NCBI GenBank assembly: GCA_050953405.1
Contig: JBMNMP010000003.1
Location: 183,159 to 247,158, forward strand
Reading direction: 5' to 3'
Source: Anaerovoracaceae bacterium
Lineage (GTDB): Bacteria > Bacillota > Clostridia > Peptostreptococcales > Anaerovoracaceae
Length of the DNA stretch: 64,000 nt
Of this stretch, positions 941-63,539 are shown piece after piece. The notes below the pieces were generated by a model that did not search any database, was not told where the DNA came from, and worked only from the letters and a program-made list of their open reading frames with translations. The position numbers and the translations under genes are program-made. Every line of letters begins with the position of its first letter. The first letter of the stretch is position 1.

Positions 941-1015
941 TCCGAGGTAGCTCAATGGTGGAGCAACCGGCTGTTAACCGGTAGGCTGTGGGTTCGAGCC
1001 CCACCCTCGGAGCCA
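941..1015 (+). tRNA. tRNA-Asn (GTT)
   Basis: Hand-folded cloverleaf. Acceptor stem TCCGAGG/CCTCGGA, anticodon loop CTGTTAA, T-loop GGTTCGAGCC, encoded CCA. Confidence 0.9.
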
Positions 1016-1040
1016 TTTTTAAAAGCGAAGCTATCGGTCC

Positions 1041-1129
1041 GCCGGCGTGGCGGAATTGGCAGACGCACGGGACTTAAAATCCCGCGGTCAGTGATGACTG
1101 TACCGGTTCGACCCCGGTCGCCGGCACCA
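1041..1129 (+). tRNA. tRNA-Leu (TAA), long variable arm
   Basis: Acceptor stem GCCGGCG/CGCCGGC, anticodon loop CTTAAAA, long variable arm, T-loop GGTTCGACC, encoded CCA. Confidence 0.9.
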
Positions 1130-1146
1130 ATAATTGAATATAACAT

Positions 1147-1222
<76 letters not shown>

Positions 1223-3109: not shown

Positions 3110-3436
3110 GTGCAATACCCCTTGGGGTTTACGTCGAATAATCTAAAAGAGCATTTCGGGTCGAATGGAAGGCATACCAAAGAATATCCGGGATGGACCG
3201 CCGAAAAATACGAGAATGAGGCATTAAAATTAGTGCAAAGCCGCACAACGGATGATATAATAGGGTATAAAACAATATACGGTGCGGTTGTAAGATACAG
3301 GAAAAGCACAAACGACCTTGTAGTAGGTTACCCTAATGGCGGAATTGCAACGATGTTCAAACCAAAAGGCAACGCCAAAAAAGGGTATAGATATGTGTTA
3401 AGGAAAATGAAGAAAGAAGGGATCATTCATGATTAA
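3110..3436 (+). CDS. Hypothetical protein; looks like an N-terminally truncated C-terminal toxin/nuclease-type domain
   Basis: 108-aa ORF with a GTG start 8 bp from the divergent repressor start. The pattern NLKEHF..GRHTKEY..AEKYENEALKLV...GIATMFKP recalls polymorphic-toxin or phage head-protein C-terminal domains. This assignment is from memory only. Confidence 0.35.
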   Translation: MQYPLGFTSNNLKEHFGSNGRHTKEYPGWTAEKYENEALKLVQSRTTDDIIGYKTIYGAVVRYRKSTNDLVVGYPNGGIATMFKPKGNAKKGYRYVLRKMKKEGIIHD

Positions 3437-3614
3437 ATGCCCCGTGTGTGGAAAATATGAATTTGAGAACATTGATGACTATCGCGTTTGCCCTATTTGT
3501 AATTGGGAGAATGAAGAGTATCAGAGGCGATACCCGGATGAAGACGGGGGCGCCAATCGAATGAGCCTTAATCAGGCACGTGAGGCTTGGAAGAAAGGTG
3601 AAAAAGTTATTTAA
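3429..3614 (+). CDS. CPCC-family cysteine-rich small protein (immunity-like)
   Basis: 61 aa with CPVCGKYEFEN...YRVCPICNWENEEYQ, the CPxC...CPxC-W-E pattern of the Cys-rich CPCC domain. Its start overlaps the preceding ORF by 8 nt. Confidence 0.6.
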   Translation: MIKCPVCGKYEFENIDDYRVCPICNWENEEYQRRYPDEDGGANRMSLNQAREAWKKGEKVI

Positions 3615-3616
3615 CT

Positions 3617-3646
3617 AAAGCACGACGCACAGCGCGTGCTTTTTTA
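3617..3646 (+). terminator. Rho-independent terminator
   Basis: Stem AGCACG...CGTGCT followed by a T6 run, directly after the CPCC ORF. Confidence 0.55.
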
Positions 3647-3661
3647 GTAGGAGGAACGGGA

Positions 3662-3880
3662 ATGAAAGAGAACAGAGAAACGATATATGAATCTTCCATA
3701 CAAAAGTTGATACAGCAGGTGAGGGATGTAGGGGGATATCTTCAGGAGCATGCGGACGAGATCGTATACCGTGGGCCATATCTGGAAGATGGCGCGTTGA
3801 AAATCATCGCAAGGTTCAATTACGGGAAGGTTCCGATTCTTGAGATAGGATATAATGTTGTTGTATTGAAACACAAATAA
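3662..3880 (+). CDS. Hypothetical small phage-region protein
   Basis: 72-aa ORF with RBS AGGAGGA 6 nt upstream. No recognisable motif. Confidence 0.4.
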   Translation: MKENRETIYESSIQKLIQQVRDVGGYLQEHADEIVYRGPYLEDGALKIIARFNYGKVPILEIGYNVVVLKHK

Positions 3881-3949
3881 CGCAGAAATGGGATGATATC
3901 ATGAAATATATTAGAGCACCGGTAAAGCATAAGGACTAAAGGAGGGGCA

Positions 3950-4370
3950 ATGGCAGATCGAATCGGACGCCAGACCCCTACGGAGAGTTTTGTTTTACCA
4001 TATCAAAAGACAGACGGCGCCGAGGCAATCGAAAGCTACGAGAAATCCGGGCGCACCGCAATGGACTGGCAGAAACTTCTTGTCTACGACATGCTGGCGA
4101 AAGAGGATGATAACCAGTGGACGCATATGAAATACGGGATCGCCGTCCCAAGGCAGAACGGCAAGAATGAAGCTGTCGCAATTCGCGAGATGTACGGGCT
4201 GCTGCACGGAGAGAAAATTCTACATACCGCGCACCGTACCGATACATCACATACCGCATGGGAACGGCTGCTCGAGATCCTGTCGGATGCCGGGCTTGTA
4301 AAGCCTGACAAGAAGGACAAAGGCCTGTATCGGGCGTTTGGAAAAGAACACCAGACGGTTGACAGCAACA
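3950..4370 (+). pseudogene. Phage terminase large subunit, N-terminal ~135-140 codons only; 5' half of chimeric ORF 3950..4783
   Basis: RBS AAGGAGGGG. The N-terminus MADRIGRQTPTESFVLPYQKTDGAEAIESYEKSGRTAMDWQK...VPRQNGKNEAVAIRE...LHTAHRTDTSHTAWERL matches the conserved N-terminus and Walker-A-like region of Clostridial phage TerL as I recall it. GC-rich: 34 G+C in the 60 nt at 4261-4320. Confidence 0.7.
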
Positions 4371-4783
4371 ATTATTCGACATCAAAAAACATCATAACAT
4401 CTTTGGATGCATATTCGGATCAATATAATCTGATTTGCAAAGTGGATATGTATTATAAGGATAAACAGCGTATTGTCGAACGAAAGAAAAAAATTAAAAG
4501 GATTTACGATGGCTATGTGTTCCAATTATATGCACAGTACTTCTGCCTCACGGAGATGGGATATCCTGTAACTAGTTTGCAGCTTTACAGTATGGATGAT
4601 AACAAGAAGTATGATGTGAAGCTGCCGGAAGATGACCTTCCTATGTATGAAAAATTCACAGGTACTATTCAGGCAATACTGCATTTCAATCTGGAAGAAT
4701 TTGTACAGACTAATGTTGAGAAATGCCGTCACTGTATATATGAACCAGCATGTGACAGAGCGGATATAAAGGAAAAGGAGTAG
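4371..4783 (+). pseudogene. cas4: cas4, 5'-truncated; 3' half of chimeric ORF 3950..4783
   Basis: PD-(D/E)xK core is present: LICKVDMY (motif II Asp), IVERKKK (E-x-K), QLYAQYF (QxxxY), and C-terminal Cys cluster CRHCIYEPAC. The N-terminal Cys and motif I are absent. AT-rich: 17 G+C in the 60 nt at 4381-4440. It sits directly upstream of cas1. Confidence 0.75.
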
Positions 4784-4787
4784 TCAT

Positions 4788-5747
4788 ATGCTCAGTTTGC
4801 CAGAAATTAAGAAAAAGCAAATAGTGTTTGTGTTTGCATATGAAGGTGACAAGCTTTCTTTTTCAAATGACAATATAGTTGTTAAGGATAAGGAAGGGAA
4901 GGTGAAACATCAATCAACGTGTTATAAACTGTTCATGGTTGTTATAGCTGGTGATATTACCATAACAAGTGGTATACTGAAAAGGGCTAAAAATTTCGGA
5001 TTTACTATTTGTTTGATGAACCGAAATCTCAAAGTATATCAGATGATAAACAGCGTTGGTGAGGGCAACACTCTGCTGCGCAAATATCAGTATTCATATG
5101 ACAAGTTAGATCTGGGAAAACGGATCACAGAAAATAAGATATATAATCAGCTAAGCGCATTGAAGAAGATGCGCAAAAAATCATTATTTGATAAGGAGGC
5201 GATTTCATACCTTAATAATTATATTGAAAAAGTTAATAGTGCAAATTCCATAAATGAAATGATGGGTTACGAAGGCGCTGCAGCAAAAATATATTTTGAA
5301 CGGATTTTCGACAATGGCGACTGGAAAGGCCGCAAACCGAGAATTAAATGCGACTATATTAATACAACTTTAGATATTGGATATAATATTCTTTTCAATT
5401 GTATGGAGGCATTGCTTCATGCGTTTGGATTTGATACATATTATGGCGTGTTGCATAGATGTTACTATAGACGAAAATCTCTAGTATGCGATTTTGTAGA
5501 ACCTTTCCGCCCTCTGATAGACCTGGAGGTAAGAAAGGGAATCAATTTGGGGCAGATCAAAAGTGAAGATTTTACGTTGCGAGGACATAGGTACGTGTTG
5601 GATTGGAAAAATTCTCCCAAATATGTAAGCTTGTTTGCCAAAGCAATTTTAGCACACAAAGAAGATATGTTTTTGTATGTACAGACGTACTATAGATCAT
5701 TCATGAAGCAGCTGGGTAGTTCTGAATTTCCGTTTTATAGAATGTAG
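4788..5747 (+). CDS. cas1: CRISPR-associated endonuclease Cas1
   Basis: 319 aa. Motifs GYEGAAAKIYF, TTLDIGYNILFN, and GVLH...SLVCDFVEPFRPLIDL. Flanked by cas4 and cas2. Confidence 0.9.
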   Translation: MLSLPEIKKKQIVFVFAYEGDKLSFSNDNIVVKDKEGKVKHQSTCYKLFMVVIAGDITITSGILKRAKNFGFTICLMNRNLKVYQMINSVGEGNTLLRKYQYSYDKLDLGKRITENKIYNQLSALKKMRKKSLFDKEAISYLNNYIEKVNSANSINEMMGYEGAAAKIYFERIFDNGDWKGRKPRIKCDYINTTLDIGYNILFNCMEALLHAFGFDTYYGVLHRCYYRRKSLVCDFVEPFRPLIDLEVRKGINLGQIKSEDFTLRGHRYVLDWKNSPKYVSLFAKAILAHKEDMFLYVQTYYRSFMKQLGSSEFPFYRM

Positions 5748-5756
5748 GCGATAGAG

Positions 5757-6032
5757 ATGATTGTTGTTAGCTATGATATCTCCGACAACAAACTCAGGAC
5801 AAGATTTTCAAAGTACCTGAAGAAGTTTGGACATCGATTACAGTATTCTGTATTTGAGATAGATGTGAGTGAGCGTATGCTGGACGTCATTGAGGCAGAA
5901 ATAAAAAACAAATATGAAAAAAGATTCGGGCAGGAGGATAGTATAATCATATTTCGCATGTCTAATACCTGTAAAAACACCAGATATGGCTATGCAGCAA
6001 ACGATAACGATGATATGATTATAGTAACATAA
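5757..6032 (+). CDS. cas2: CRISPR-associated endoribonuclease Cas2
   Basis: 91 aa. MIVVSYDISDNKLRTRFSKYLKKFGHRLQYSVFE is the typical Cas2 N-terminus. Confidence 0.9.
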   Translation: MIVVSYDISDNKLRTRFSKYLKKFGHRLQYSVFEIDVSERMLDVIEAEIKNKYEKRFGQEDSIIIFRMSNTCKNTRYGYAANDNDDMIIVT

Positions 6033-6158
6033 TTACAAACCTCAGTCTTTATGAGGTAATACCATATATTAGGTTTAATGAACATGGCAAATTTGTGTAT
6101 GATGAACAAAAATATAGGCTCCATAATAAAAATAATTGTACAACGCTAACACTTAAGC
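6033..6158 (+). promoter_or_regulatory. AT-rich CRISPR leader
   Basis: 126-nt AT-rich stretch between the cas2 stop and the first repeat. Small hairpin ACCTCA/TGAGGT at 6038-6058. Weak promoter candidate: TTAATG (6075-6080), 17 nt, TATGAT (6098-6103). Confidence 0.6.
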
Positions 6159-9100
6159 GTTCATGGAACCTATGAAATTTCTACTGTTGTAGATTTGTGG
6201 CGAACACTCTCAATACTCTTGTTCATGGAACCTATGAAATTTCTACTGTTGTAGATATGCAGATAATGGCGGTGGTTGTAGCGTTCATGGAACCTATGAA
6301 ATTTCTACTGTTGTAGATTTTAGAGCTTCCATTGATTTTTCGATGTTCATGGAACCTATGAAATTTCTACTGTTGTAGATCACACCAAGCCCACGCTTCG
6401 CTATCCGGTTCATGGAACCTATGAAATTTCTACTGTTGTAGATTACGGGGTTTACTAAAAGAGCTATAAATGTTCATGGAACCTATGAAATTTCTACTGT
6501 TGTAGATTTGTCCCCGATTCTTTTAACTGCTTCGTTCATGGAACCTATGAAATTTCTACTGTTGTAGATGACGGCTTTAAGAATCCGGTCATCAATGTTC
6601 ATGGAACCTATGAAATTTCTACTGTTGTAGATCTTTGCCCGCTGCCTTTGCAAGCTTGGTTCATGGAACCTATGAAATTTCTACTGTTGTAGATATCAAC
6701 GGTCTGCTCTTATTACATTCAGTTCATGGAACCTATGAAATTTCTACTGTTGTAGATTACATCATCTGTAGTGGTATCTGGGGGTTCATGGAACCTATGA
6801 AATTTCTACTGTTGTAGATTCACAACACGGTTAGTATTTATAGACGTTCATGGAACCTATGAAATTTCTACTGTTGTAGATATTATTACCAGAGCATACC
6901 AGAGCATAGTTCATGGAACCTATGAAATTTCTACTGTTGTAGATATATTTTCCTTATATGAAGTGTCCACTGGTTCATGGAACCTATGAAATTTCTACTG
7001 TTGTAGATTCCTTTCAGTGCGTCTTTAAGTTTTGTGTTCATGGAACCTATGAAATTTCTACTGTTGTAGATAAGGACAACTCCCCTTGCTCGTTATAATG
7101 TTCATGGAACCTATGAAATTTCTACTGTTGTAGATCCGCCGATTTTTCCTATCCACCCGAACGTTCATGGAACCTATGAAATTTCTACTGTTGTAGATTG
7201 AGCTTGCTGATCTGATCTTTGAGAGGTTCATGGAACCTATGAAATTTCTACTGTTGTAGATTGGATCTCGGCCAGATCGCTCCAGAGGTTCATGGAACCT
7301 ATCAAATTTCTACTGTTGTAGATAAACTCATCTTTTATTACCCTGTACGGTGCGTTCATGGAACCTATGAAATTTCTACTGTTGTAGATCAGTAAAGACC
7401 GATGATGATACATATGGTTCATGGAACCTATGAAATTTCTACTGTTGTAGATAAATTATTGGAATTGATAGATATACAGGTTCATGGAACCTATGAAATT
7501 TCTACTGTTGTAGATCAAAATCTGATATGTCAGTAGTTACCGAGTTCATGGAACCTATGAAATTTCTACTGTTGTAGATTGCAACCTCTTGACCTGCGAG
7601 CCTGTAGTTCATGGAACCTATGAAATTTCTACTGTTGTAGATCTCGGCCGCAGTAAATGAAATGCCGACGTTCATGGAACCTATGAAATTTCTACTGTTG
7701 TAGATATTTGATTTAAGTGTCATGTTATTTCGTTCATGGAACCTATGAAATTTCTACTGTTGTAGATCTGAGATATGTGCACGGTGGATGAGCAAGTTCA
7801 TGGAACCTATGAAATTTCTACTGTTGTAGATTGTAGATTCGGCATCGACACACCTCTTGTTCATGGAACCTATGAAATTTCTACTGTTGTAGATCATGCG
7901 GATGCTGTGAATCCACAAGGTGTTCATGGAACCTATGAAATTTCTACTGTTGTAGATGTCCGCCTGTGGTCGGATCAACATAGTGTTCATGGAACCTATG
8001 AAATTTCTACTGTTGTAGATTTTAGTTTGTTTATCCCTGTAATAGTGTTCATGGAACCTATGAAATTTCTACTGTTGTAGATACATAACTCGCGATGCTT
8101 CTCTGCTTTGTTCATGGAACCTATGAAATTTCTACTGTTGTAGATCCGTATGCCTTTGGCGGGAAAAAAGGTAGTTCATGGAACCTATGAAATTTCTACT
8201 GTTGTAGATCCCATCTGACGCGCGTCACGCTTCAGGTTCATGGAACCTATGAAATTTCTACTGTTGTAGATCCAAAACGCCATTCGCATAATTATCCGGT
8301 TCATGGAACCTATGAAATTTCTACTGTTGTAGATTTCGGTGTATCGGGTACAACATCTTATGTTCATGGAACCTATGAAATTTCTACTGTTGTAGATTTG
8401 TTCCAAGCCCCGGGTTTGCTTTCATGTTCATGGAACCTATGAAATTTCTACTGTTGTAGATTGATCGTTCCCGCCTGACTGACTCCCAGGTTCATGGAAC
8501 CTATGAAATTTCTACTGTTGTAGATTGTACGCCGTGTTCATAACCCCTACCGGTTCATGGAACCTATGAAATTTCTACTGTTGTAGATTTGCTGCATCCT
8601 GCCATGAGTGTTTTTGGTTCATGGAACCTATGAAATTTCTACTGTTGTAGATAGTCGAAAAGGAAACAAAAGGAGCGATGTTCATGGAACCTATGAAATT
8701 TCTACTGTTGTAGATTTTTGCTTCCGAAAATTCCATCAACGTGTTCATGGAACCTATGAAATTTCTACTGTTGTAGATCTTCGCTTTTATCACTGACGCC
8801 TTTGTATGTTCATGGAACCTATGAAATTTCTACTGTTGTAGATTTCTGCTGTTCAAAATAATCCTCCATTGTTCATGGAACCTATGAAATTTCTACTGTT
8901 GTAGATCTCTGGTTGCAGAAGTTCTCAATGAAAGTTCATGGAACCTATGAAATTTCTACTGTTGTAGATTCCATTCTGACATGTTATGCCTCCCAAGTTC
9001 ATGGAACCTATGAAATTTCTACTGTTGTAGATGGGAAGAGATCGCGGCTCGTGGGTTGAGTTCATGGAACCTATGAAATTTCTACTGTTGTAGATTCGTC

Positions 9101-9344
9101 GTCCTCGATCTTGCAGTAGCTGTTCATGGAACCTATGAAATTTCTACTGTTGTAGATCTTCATCATTGAATATGAAGCAGTGTGTTCATGGAACCTATGA
9201 AATTTCTACTGTTGTAGATAAACAGCTGCTGTCAGAGAACTGGTAGTTCATGGAACCTATGAAATTTATACTGTTGTAGATCGGAAGTAACATACCGCTC
9301 TTGCGGAAGTTCATGGAACCTATGAAGTTTCTACTGTTGCAGAT
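6159..9344 (+). CRISPR. Type V-A (Cas12a/Cpf1-type) CRISPR array, 51 repeats and 50 spacers
   Basis: The 36-nt repeat is GTTCATGGAACCTATGAAATTTCTACTGTTGTAGAT. I counted 51 copies by hand, the first at 6159 and the last at 9309. Spacers are 26-30 nt and all different. The repeat 3' end AATTTCTACTGTTGTAGAT (stem TCTAC/GTAGA) is the Cas12a crRNA handle. The two distal repeats are degenerate: 9246 has TTTATACTG, and 9309 has GAAGTTT and GTTGCAGAT. The repeat at 7288 has TATCAAATT. Confidence 0.97.
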
Positions 9345-9557
9345 TTGCTTGAAGGCGTAAAGTGGTTCCGGGTGGTAGATCTTCGTATTGACTATTGCTT
9401 ACTGGATGATAGGAAATATATACAGGACTTTATCGGCGATGAACGCACGAATGTGGTAGGGTCTGTTTATATGTATAAAGAAATGAAGTACGGCTTTAAG
9501 GATGTTCCGGTCCCGCTGGGAGAAGGGGACGTGATCATAGATGCTTTCTGTGAGTAA
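9345..9557 (+). CDS. Hypothetical ORF abutting the last repeat; possibly a remnant of a disrupted host gene
   Basis: 70-aa ORF with a TTG start directly at the array end. Host-like GC content, no RBS, no recognisable motif. Confidence 0.25.
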   Translation: MLEGVKWFRVVDLRIDYCLLDDRKYIQDFIGDERTNVVGSVYMYKEMKYGFKDVPVPLGEGDVIIDAFCE

Positions 9558-9634
9558 TATCATTAAAGGTAGATGACCGGCAAGTTTTCAGGTATAATTA
9601 AGAAGATAATATTTAGAGAGACGAGGATTGACGT

Positions 9635-10330
9635 ATGACTGTTTTACTGGCGGCGGCATTGATTCCACCGCTGTTTTTGATCTTTCAGGTGTATCGCATA
9701 GATCGGGTAGAGAAAGAACCGCTCGGCCTGCTGATCAAGTTGTTCATATTTGGGGCCATTGCAGTGGTGCCTGCTGTTTTGCTGGAGATGCTGGGTACTG
9801 ATATACTGCTGGACGGTCTCTTTTCAGGCAGTGGCACTCTGGTGCGCCGCATAGTGGAGAACTTCATTGTGGTCGCCCTGGTGGAGGAAGGGTGCAAGCG
9901 CTTTTTCCTCAAGCGGGGCAGCTGGAGGCATCCGGCGTTCGATTACTGTTTTGATGCCATTGTATATTCGGTCGTTGTGTCGCTGGGGTTTGCCGCACTG
10001 GAAAACATCGGATATGTATTCCAATACGGTCTTCAAGTGGCTGCGATGCGGGCGGTGACCTCTATACCGGGGCACTGCATCTTCGGTATCTTCATGGGTC
10101 ACTATTACGGCATGGCCAGGATGGCCGATGCCTGGGGCGACAAAAAGCGCAGCCGTTCAATGCTGCGCAAGAGTCTTTGGGTCCCGGTCTTTCTGCACGG
10201 ATTCTATGACTTCACCGCGTCGATGGACAACAGTATAGTGACCATCGTGTTCTTTGTTTACCTTGTCGTGCTCGATATCGTGGCTATCCGCTCGATACGC
10301 AGGTATTCGAGACAGGACTTCCCCATCTGA
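9635..10330 (+). CDS. prsW: PrsW-family intramembrane metalloprotease
   Basis: Multi-TM protein with the EEGCKRF (EExxK) and HGFYDF motifs. Confidence 0.8.
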   Translation: MTVLLAAALIPPLFLIFQVYRIDRVEKEPLGLLIKLFIFGAIAVVPAVLLEMLGTDILLDGLFSGSGTLVRRIVENFIVVALVEEGCKRFFLKRGSWRHPAFDYCFDAIVYSVVVSLGFAALENIGYVFQYGLQVAAMRAVTSIPGHCIFGIFMGHYYGMARMADAWGDKKRSRSMLRKSLWVPVFLHGFYDFTASMDNSIVTIVFFVYLVVLDIVAIRSIRRYSRQDFPI

Positions 10331-21163: not shown

Positions 21164-21184
21164 GATACCTGAAATCAAAAATCG

Positions 21185-21412
21185 TTCAGATGAAACCGCC
21201 GGTGTGCGACCTAGAAGCGCAATGCGATAATAGGGAACCGGGTGAAAGTCCCGGGCAGACCTTGCTGCCGTTACAGCCGGAAAACCTGCCGGGGGTTCAT
21301 CCCGCGGGCAACAGGCTGCAGCGCACGGGGTGAATATTGATAGATGACGGGATGTGCAGAGGCGCATCCCATGCTTCGGCAGAATGCAGCCGGAGCTTTT
21401 ATTATTTTTTGA
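21185..21412 (+). ncRNA. Cobalamin (B12) riboswitch with terminator expression platform
   Basis: Core AATAGGGAACCGGGTGAAAGTCCCGG, and B12-box-like AGCCGGAAAACCTGCC. Terminator stem GCTTCGGC (21373-21380) pairs with GCCGGAGC (21389-21396), followed by TTTTATTATTTTTT. Confidence 0.75.
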
Positions 21413-33527: not shown

Positions 33528-33724
33528 AATTTGCAGTTGACAAACCCGGTACGCATGGGTTATTATTCTCATATCATATGACTGACGGAAACGTGGAATG
33601 AACCACAATGAAGTATGATTATAACAAAGCCGACCGTCTGGGCGAAAAGCCCTGAGGTGCGGCTTTTTCTATTGCGGGACCGCGCGGTGATCAAGGACCG
33701 CGGGAGCATGAAGCGGAGGAACGG

Positions 33725-40763: not shown

Positions 40764-40838
<75 letters not shown>

Positions 40839-40904
40839 AGGCCTCTTGCTGAATCGATTTTTAAATATCAGGGGCGCCGGACGTTGTCCGCGCCCCGTGA
40901 TCAT

Positions 40905-40979
40905 TGGCTAGGGTAGCAGGATTCGAACCTGCGCATGATGGAATCAGAATCCATTGCCTTACCACTTGGCGATACCCCA
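40905..40979 (-). tRNA. tRNA-Gln (CTG)
   Basis: Reverse complement TGGGGTATCGCCAAGTGG... with anticodon loop TTCTGAT, ending TACCCTAGCCA. Confidence 0.85.
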
Positions 40980-41057
40980 ATGTTGGTTACTTTTCTATTA
41001 TATAATACACTCCGTGATTTGTGAACTGGTATTTCACGTTTTGTATTTTCTCTTTAA

Positions 41058-41134
41058 TGGGGTGGGTAGTGGGATTCGAACCCACGCATGGCGGAGCCAC
41101 AACCCGCTGTCTTAACCACTTGACTATACCCACC
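41058..41134 (-). tRNA. tRNA-His (GTG) with encoded G-1
   Basis: Reverse complement G-GTGGGTATAGTCAAGTGG... with anticodon loop TTGTGGC, ending TACCCACCCCA. The extra 5' G pairs with C73. Confidence 0.9.
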
Positions 41135-41138
41135 AAAT

Positions 41139-41215
41139 TGGCGATCCGGATCGGGTTCGAACCGACGACCTCCAGCGTGACAGGCTGGCATTCTAACCAA
41201 CTGAACTACCGGACC
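41139..41215 (-). tRNA. tRNA-Asp (GTC)
   Basis: Reverse complement GGTCCGGTAGTTCAGTTGGTTAGAATGCC... with anticodon loop CTGTCAC, ending CCGGATCGCCA. Confidence 0.9.
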
Positions 41216-41232
41216 GCATAATTAGTCATACA

Positions 41233-41308
41233 TGGTGGGCGCTACAGGGCTCGAACCTGTGACCCCCTGCTTGTAAGGCAGGTGCTCTCCCAGCTGAGCT
41301 AAGCGCCC
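41233..41308 (-). tRNA. tRNA-Val (TAC)
   Basis: Reverse complement GGGCGCTTAGCTCAGCTGGGAGAGC... with anticodon loop CTTACAA, ending AGCGCCCACCA. Confidence 0.9.
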
Positions 41309-41334
41309 ATATACAATGTATTTGATAAAGTATA

Positions 41335-41411
41335 TGGTAGCGGCGAGTGGATTCGAACCACCGACCTTCCGGGTATGAACCGGACGCTCTAGCCAACTAA
41401 GCTACACCGCC
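41335..41411 (-). tRNA. Elongator tRNA-Met (CAT)
   Basis: Reverse complement GGCGGTGTAGCTTAGTTGGCTAGAGCG... with anticodon loop TTCATAC, ending CGCCGCTACCA. It resembles Bacillus elongator tRNA-Met. Confidence 0.8.
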
Positions 41412-55251: not shown

Positions 55252-55347
55252 GTAGTAGCGGACGCAATACCGCATCGCAAGCTCGTTGCTTTTCGTCCAC
55301 AGGCTACATCCCATCCTGAGGCACGTAACGCACGGTATTTACTCTAC
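55252..55347 (-). ncRNA. THF (tetrahydrofolate) riboswitch
   Basis: The minus strand reads GTAGAGTAAATACCGTGCGTTACGTGCC...GGATGGGATGTAGCC...GGACGAAAAGC...GCGGTATTGCGTCCGCTACTAC. This matches the recalled THF-I consensus blocks (AGAGTAG..CGCGTTA..GGGATG..ACGAAGC..GCATCCGCT). It lies in the 5' leader of folT. Confidence 0.75.
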
Positions 55348-55409
55348 AAGAAAGAGTATAGCACAAGCTGTTCTTGAAGGCAATATTTCGATTTGATATA
55401 CTGTTATCT

Positions 55410-58530: not shown

Positions 58531-60056
<1,526 letters not shown>

Positions 60057-60083
60057 CTCAAGTTTCTGCACTATGTGTTTTAT

Positions 60084-60160
<77 letters not shown>

Positions 60161-60449
60161 CATGTACCTTGAAAACTGAATATCCGAAAGTGTAAATTCA
60201 AATTTTACATAGTAAAAATTAATTTTACGAAACGAATCGAGGAATGCGCGAGAGCGCATCCAAAGTATTAGCTAAATGAAGCAAAACTAAGCGAACGCAG
60301 AGTTTTTCCCATTTGGCGGGTATAAAAAACGATTCATCGAGAAACCAGACCATTTTCACAAAAGAGAAAACAATAGTGAAGATAAGAAAATCCATCGTAC
60401 GCTAGCGATGGTGGCCAGTTATATCGCGGAAGCGGTAGACAAGCAATAA

Positions 60450-63350
<2,901 letters not shown>

Positions 63351-63417
63351 TGGTTTCTAAGGAAGACAGAAAGACACATGAGTAGGACATTCAGTTTTGA
63401 GGGTACATGACCCCATA

Positions 63418-63533
<116 letters not shown>

Positions 63534-63539
63534 TTAACA

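Follow-up and report, generated by a model that had tools for sequence, protein, structure and literature searches.

The type V-A loci of Clostridia, for example L010 and L009, have the gene order cas12a-cas4-cas1-cas2-array. The 64-kb stretch of DNA analysed here (the window), from a Clostridia genome of gut type, has an identical order downstream of cas4 and, in keeping with these loci, contains a type V cas1, a cas2, a remnant that still passes the Cas4 model and 36-nt repeats ending in TCTACTGTTGTAGAT, which we take to be the Cas12a crRNA handle. Unlike these loci the window has no cas12a, and in its cas4 134 codons of phage origin stand in place of the first 45.

As in degraded CRISPR-Cas loci and orphan arrays, what is left in the window is an array without an effector together with a residual adaptation module; it differs from the usual degraded loci in that the parental alleles and the exact breakpoint can be recovered, and in that no self-targeting spacer was found among the 50 in its array. 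Cryptic prophages are a further point of comparison, as the window has an integrase beside a tRNA gene, a repressor with no detected HTH domain and head or packaging genes that are broken mid-gene, yet here one deletion reaches into a defence locus and makes an in-frame hybrid with a host gene. Finally, Cas4 occurs in natural fusions (Cas4-Cas1) and as solo or MGE-encoded Cas4, and the window likewise has a Cas4 core on another polypeptide with phage-derived sequence involved. To our knowledge, however, the known Cas4 fusions retain the whole domain, each of the four cysteines included, and have been conserved from lineage to lineage, whereas the chimera described here is truncated and has been seen in one near-clonal lineage. 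We place the locus among degraded CRISPR loci and cryptic prophages and not among the natural Cas4 fusions. The process is a known one, that of ordinary genome decay, and there is no new mechanism or system; what the analysis adds is the exact breakpoint, the two parental alleles, a second scar and a negative result on self-targeting.

The feature on which this comparison turns is an ORF at 3950-4783 on the forward strand, which starts with ATG, encodes 277 aa (the two parts are listed in Table 1) and is very probably the scar of a recent chromosomal deletion. The preliminary description of this DNA, made from the letters alone, had taken the ORF for the N-terminus of a phage terminase fused to the C-terminus of Cas4, and it is a true chimera, the halves matching different families that overlap only at the junction, with no single family running from end to end. 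Residues 2-112 fall on positions 57-169 (of 812) in the PHROG 9 profile for the large terminase subunit, with E 7e-19, and phrog_17688 takes in residues 3-118 with E 3e-35; a tblastn search with the N-terminal half matched annotated phage terminases, the best named of which belongs to Faecalibacterium phage Aster (57%). Residues 133-270 match NCBIfam TIGR04328 (cas4_PREFRAN, type V Cas4, profile positions 41-177 of 178, E 1.6e-48) with a score of 165.1 bits, where the curated whole-protein cutoff is 70, and the position beside cas1-cas2 and a CRISPR array is that of a type V Cas4. Pfam matched neither terminase nor Cas4, whether with the whole ORF or with each half separately, and as it is blind to both halves the PHROGs and NCBIfam libraries were needed for the call.

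Much of the detail in the preliminary description also holds. The ribosome binding site is present as AGGAGG, located 8 nt 5' of the ATG, and the frame is open to the native cas4 stop; the G+C counts that were given to either side of the junction are exact (34/60 at 4261-4320, 17/60 at 4381-4440), the terminase part as a whole having 53% G+C and the cas4 part 37%; and the Cas4 motifs, a C-terminal CxxCxxxxxC (CRHCIYEPAC), the conserved D, ExK and Q...Y, are all there. Two of its statements need to be sharpened. The border between the halves had been put between residues ~135 and ~150, which is too loose, the actual join being at His134 (nt 4348-4351), and of the N-terminal part of Cas4 that was said to be missing the Cys is indeed gone, but a conserved His that directly precedes the Cas4 core has stayed.

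The NCBI protein MGI6722432.1, from a metagenome-assembled genome (MAG) of an Anaerovoracaceae bacterium, is the same hybrid under the name "type V CRISPR-associated protein Cas4", an annotation error that mentions neither the foreign N-terminal 134 residues nor the truncation of Cas4. With such an annotation the locus would count as an incomplete type V-A system and the cause would be hidden by the Cas4 name.

Table 1. Features of the prophage remnant, the hybrid gene and the CRISPR-cas locus, in window coordinates
Feature	Position	Strand	Basis
tRNA-Asn, tRNA-Leu, tRNA-Met cluster	941..1222	+	ARAGORN, Rfam
Tyrosine integrase, 371 aa	1304..2419	-	Pfam Phage_integrase, E 4.6e-21, plus SAM-like and central domains
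S24-peptidase (CI/LexA-like) repressor remnant, 165 aa	2604..3101	-	Pfam Peptidase_S24, residues 39-159
108-aa ORF, GTG start	3110..3436	+	C-terminus of the 263-aa protein of L078 makes up the last 104 residues
Second deletion junction, where the repressor side runs into the interior of a gene for a 263-aa phage protein	3122..3123	.	Start of homology to L078
Gene for small Cys-rich CPCC protein	3429..3614	+	Pfam PF14206, E 1.8e-16
72-aa phage gene, directly upstream of the terminase gene	3662..3880	+	Exact protein in L078, same place
Terminase large-subunit part, codons 1-134	3950..4351	+	PHROG 9, phrog_17688; 95.5% nt identity to L078
ACAC microhomology at the crossover, region of the His134 codon	4348..4351	+	Three-way alignment, BLAST end points
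cas4 part, codons 46-189 of an intact type V cas4	4348..4783	+	TIGR04328; 100% to P0121/L009
cas1, type V, full length	4788..5747	+	TIGR04329, 374.7 bits (cutoff 300), profile 2-316 of 317
cas2	5757..6032	+	TIGR01573, E 3.9e-14; Pfam CRISPR_Cas2
Putative AT-rich leader between cas2 and the first repeat	6033..6158	+	Position at the undegenerated end of the array
CRISPR array, 51 repeats (36 nt) and 50 spacers (26-30 nt)	6159..9344	+	TRF and custom scan

The preliminary description had proposed to look for the undeleted state in related strains, and both parental states are present in public data. For cas4, a homologue search with the C-terminal half found P0121, an intact Cas4 of 189 aa with 100% identity across the 142 residues of the query; it is encoded on L009, a contig from Logan run SRR11702762, in the same chromosomal context as the window. 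L009 shares cas1, cas2 and downstream genes (PrsW, DUF364, VanW and others) with the window, with 0 mismatches in the 1847 nt from 4348 to the first repeat while the downstream flank differs at 2 of 8600 nt, and since the trailer spacers S49 and S50 are also common to both, the window and L009 are of the same lineage. Directly upstream of the intact cas4 there are 118 residues on L009 that match the NUC and RuvC domains of Cas12a, the contig stopping inside cas12a, which bears out the claim that cas12a and the 5' end of cas4 have been lost from the window.

For the phage, exact look-up of the 72-aa protein led to L078, a prophage that looks complete and lies on a 1.1-Mb contig of JGI 3300053716; in it the 72-aa gene is followed by a full-length terminase of 472 aa with a TerL_nuclease domain at residues 231-386. 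The window aligns to L078 from 3122 to 4351 only (L078 9462-10690, 95.5% identity), the homology stopping exactly at the junction, and while in L078 the terminase gene continues past this point, in the window it does not, in agreement with the view that a prophage was one of the parents and that the rest of it has been removed. The true parental prophage was not recovered; L078, a relative at 95.5%, lies at another locus and differs from the window in its integrase and repressor module. Further searches, for the undeleted cas12a and for what lies upstream of it, were less productive: a scan of GTDB genomes with Cas1 found only relatives of at most 72% identity in other contexts, the homologues found with a related Cas12a of full length were no more than 69% identical to the L009 fragment, and when the integrase, the repressor and the 72-aa protein were looked up as exact sequences, the sample with the intact cas4 was not among the results.

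With these two alleles the junction can be read to the base. By the BLAST end points the phage homology stops at 4351 and the cas4 homology starts at 4348, an overlap of 4 bp (ACAC), and in a three-way alignment of L078, the window and L009 the breakpoint reads ...GGGAAGGAACAC followed by ATCTACC... in terL, ...GGAAAAGAACAC followed by CAGACGG... in the window and ...ACAGCTGCACAC followed by CAGACGG... in cas4. Within the shared ACAC is a CAC (His) codon, which terL and cas4 read in the same frame; residues 1-134 of the chimera come from TerL and residues 134/135-277 are residues 46-189 of Cas4. A short overlap between the two homologies is as expected from the illegitimate recombination that the preliminary description had proposed, and at 4 bp it marks the joining as illegitimate and microhomology-mediated.

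We propose an ancestral state in which a prophage sat at tRNA-Met and adjoined a type V-A locus with the full order cas12a-cas4-cas1-cas2-array. Microhomology-mediated illegitimate recombination would then have joined codon 134 of the phage terL to codon 46 of cas4 at ACAC, with the loss of the last 338 codons of terL, the structural and lysis genes, attR and any intervening DNA, and of all cas12a plus the first 135 nt (45 codons) of cas4. Related Cas12a proteins are ~1220 aa long and the phage structural genes visible past terL in L078 take up at least 8.5 kb; by comparison with such relatives the deletion would come to at least about 13 kb and was probably a few tens of kb in size. Both this size and the exact length of the microhomology are values that we infer, L078 being only a relative of the true parent. 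No divergence has gathered since the event, the cas4 part of the chimera being identical to the intact allele. A prophage that had been cut in this way should no longer be able to be packaged or to lyse the cell. A spontaneous deletion is the default reading, and it may have been favoured since the prophage was disarmed. The locus can be taken as a natural example of the loss of a CRISPR effector, in which one microhomology-mediated deletion would link the decay of a prophage with that of a defence system, and for which the alleles from before and after are both recoverable from metagenomes.

The most serious competitor, which we nevertheless consider improbable, is that Cas12a autoimmunity selected for the deletion as a means of escape: a Cas12a guided by one of the spacers would have cut the adjoining prophage, and the only cells to survive would have been those in which repair at a microhomology removed the lethal half of the prophage and cas12a together. 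The deletion takes exactly what such an escape needs, that is prophage DNA and cas12a, the join is at a 4-bp microhomology as repair would leave it, and self-targeting of prophages is reported to end in the deletion of cas genes or of entire CRISPR-Cas loci (PMC7708048). The spacers, however, do not bear this out, as none of the 50 has a match in the window outside the array, prophage remnant included, and the best ungapped spacer matches in L078 (20 kb) and in L089 (11.7 kb), an IMG/VR relative, are 19/26, which does not surpass the 70-75% of shuffled controls. Nor was there a match between the spacers and any of the other loci compared, or between spacers S1-S3 and IMG/VR, and comparison of the array with GenBank phages gave nothing credible. 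An autoimmune trigger is unsupported by the spacers tested, and its target could lie in phage DNA that was not recovered. If it were true, this would be a natural and breakpoint-resolved case of self-targeting that drives the domestication of a prophage and the loss of CRISPR together, with both alleles public.

In what is left of the CRISPR-Cas system the ATG of cas1 lies 4 nt after the stop codon of the chimera, and cas2 and then the array come next. The last repeat is degenerate, which places the leader on the cas2 side. Three repeats deviate, namely R19 (7288-7323) and R50 (9246-9281) with 1 mismatch each and the terminal R51 (9309-9344) with 2; the remaining 48 are identical. The order of the spacers is the same as in the window in L001 and L002 (all 50) and in L004 (S1-S25, where the contig ends). 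The CRISPR-cas region (window 4300-9600) has ~31-42% G+C in 200-nt windows as against 50-60% in the chromosomal flanks, a contrast that suggests that the CRISPR-cas locus was itself acquired horizontally.

By its type V Cas1 and its Cas12a-type repeats the locus is of type V-A, and the Cas12a effector that goes with them is absent from the window: no cas12a was found in the 64 kb or in the 10 kb further upstream on L001, and Mfd/TRCF is the only ORF of the window to exceed 1000 aa. The maturation of crRNAs is carried out by Cas12a itself, and because none remains in the window the array of 50 spacers should be inert, with neither crRNA processing nor interference, unless a second effector is present elsewhere in the genome. 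An array with Cas1, Cas2, an N-terminally truncated Cas4 and no Cas12a may amount to a natural experiment on whether spacer acquisition goes on at such loci and whether PAM selection has been lost. It is very unlikely that an inversion or translocation, and not a simple deletion, has moved cas12a and the 5' end of cas4 to another place in the genome. The part of the genome inspected is the 64 kb of the window and the additional 10 kb on L001, which gives such a rearrangement some room; against it, cas12a is found in neither part, and a JGI-type metagenome scan with the C-terminus of Cas12a gave at most 61% identity, in a collection that may not include the relevant samples.

It remains to be asked what each half of the hybrid protein keeps. 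On the terminase side the N-terminal ATPase region expected of a member of PHROG 9 is present, with the first 402 nt of terL matched at 95.5% and the PRQNGKN loop kept, and the C-terminal 338 residues of the full-length relative are missing. The segment LLVIDEAQ of the L078 TerL, presumably its Walker B motif, and the TerL_nuclease domain (231-386 in L078) both lie past the breakpoint and are absent from the window, so that there is no complete terminase. For Cas4, residues were mapped by alignment with 25 intact type V Cas4 proteins; sequence and profile searches of the PDB with the intact Cas4 and the full TerL found nothing, and the mapping of motifs therefore rests on this alignment of homologues. 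The chimera is without the nearly invariant N11, D12, F15, C16, P17, S19-Y21, H23, Q35, Q39 and G42, and it keeps H46 (which is H134 of the chimera), D50, D78, E89, K91, Q104, Y106, C171, C174 and C180. It has, in other words, the RecB-type catalytic positions (H, D, ExK) and Q...Y, and three of the four cysteines of the Fe-S cluster (C171, C174 and C180), C16, which would be the fourth ligand, having gone along with residues 1-45. Cas4 requires one N-terminal and three C-terminal cysteines to bind its Fe-S cluster, and in the Cas4 protein Sso0001 the replacement of any one of the four gave insoluble protein (PMC3466216). By this mapping the hybrid would be about one third of a terminase ATPase domain followed by a Cas4 core that lacks its N-terminal Fe-S cysteine and helix, and as both halves are broken mid-domain it is most likely an unstable or inactive protein. 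A search for sigma-70-like promoters on the + strand between 2400 and 4797 found no candidate, which is weak evidence either way.

There is very little to recommend the notion that the fusion is a functional protein under selection, be it a Cas4 nuclease core with a new N-terminal domain or a packaging decoy. It could draw on a frame that is open through the native cas4 stop, on a strong ribosome binding site, on the retained catalytic-type H, D, ExK and three Cys, and on the fact that translation through the truncated cas4 could keep coupling to cas1, the ATG of which is so close. Set against this, the terminase part has been broken mid-domain and is without the C-terminal residues that include the nuclease domain, and the Cas4 part is without its fourth Fe-S ligand, a loss of the kind that made Sso0001 insoluble (PMC3466216). 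Furthermore, the protein cluster of the chimera has a single member, all contigs that carry it share their context and, where it is assembled, the array, which makes them one near-clonal lineage, and with zero divergence from the intact allele there has been no time for selection to become visible. The open frame of the fusion is a one-in-three accident.

That the junction is an artefact in which an assembler joined phage reads to reads of the CRISPR locus can be dismissed with near certainty, in spite of the metagenome-assembled origin of the sequence and the abrupt shift in G+C, as the parents share just 4 bp at the junction, far under the k-mer of any assembler, and the exact 277-aa product and identical junction were assembled independently in at least four samples by two pipelines (contigs of JGI 3300060680, 3300060803 and 3300062814 and of Logan SRR31066036) as well as in the NCBI MAG; the contigs read here reach 156 kb, and the longest that is recorded for the protein has 520 kb.

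The scar in cas4 would be one of two that were left on the prophage. The probable attachment site of the prophage, judging by position, is tRNA-Met (1147-1222), which abuts the integrase; no second copy of the 3' region of tRNA-Met or of the integrase-proximal sequence, as would mark attR, was found within the window. No HTH domain was detected by Pfam N-terminal to the S24 domain of the repressor remnant, and when its frame is continued upstream it enters the phage fragment and is closed by a stop no more than 10 codons on; the short N-terminal piece ...IQKLADYFEVNKTDLI may be read as the tail of an HTH domain. It is at this place that the homology to L078 starts abruptly, at window 3122 and in the middle of the gene for a 263-aa phage protein (L078 8985-9776), and the 108-aa ORF that results consists of four new codons followed by 104 phage residues and aligns with PHROG 15528 at the C-terminal end of that family. 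A second deletion at 3122/3123, earlier or later than the first, would have removed the HTH domain of the repressor together with early genes, of which about 9 kb appear to be missing by comparison with L078. The prophage would accordingly be a remnant left by two deletions.

Other samples of the same series contain contigs that break exactly at the left junction, L086 ending at window 3123 and L082 starting at 3122, and a third contig, L088, stops where the repressor gene does, at window 2602. Such breaks suggest that these samples hold co-existing variants that share one side of the breakpoint, possibly including the undeleted prophage. In L087 (Logan SRR29081727, positions 1-450) the same integrase (exact protein, 99.7% nt identity) is followed by sequence unrelated to the repressor region of the window; an integrase module with a different neighbour points to a mosaic element. 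The CPCC protein differs in its C-terminal end, with 61 aa in the window and 44 aa in L078, where its gene (9769-9903) occupies the corresponding place.

Truncated terminase genes are also present elsewhere. On L005-L008 the gene at 10001-10282 encodes P0010, a terminase N-terminus of 93 aa that is 81% identical and that lies at a different chromosomal locus; it was found in 3300053716, the sample from which L078 also comes, and in two from the sample series of the chimera. The content downstream of P0010 varies, with a SymE/Vsr/Dcm/McrBC island in L005 (SymE also in L007) and YraN/ComM/DprA in L006. Several more short terminase fragments are present on long contigs, and the search seems to favour matches of query length.

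Away from the prophage and the CRISPR-cas locus, the window has THF, ZMP/ZTP and cobalamin riboswitches (55254-55348, 33568-33650 and 21182-21307, respectively), a cluster of six tRNA genes at 40764-41411 and a complete rRNA operon (16S, tRNA-Ile, 23S, 5S) at 58531-63534.
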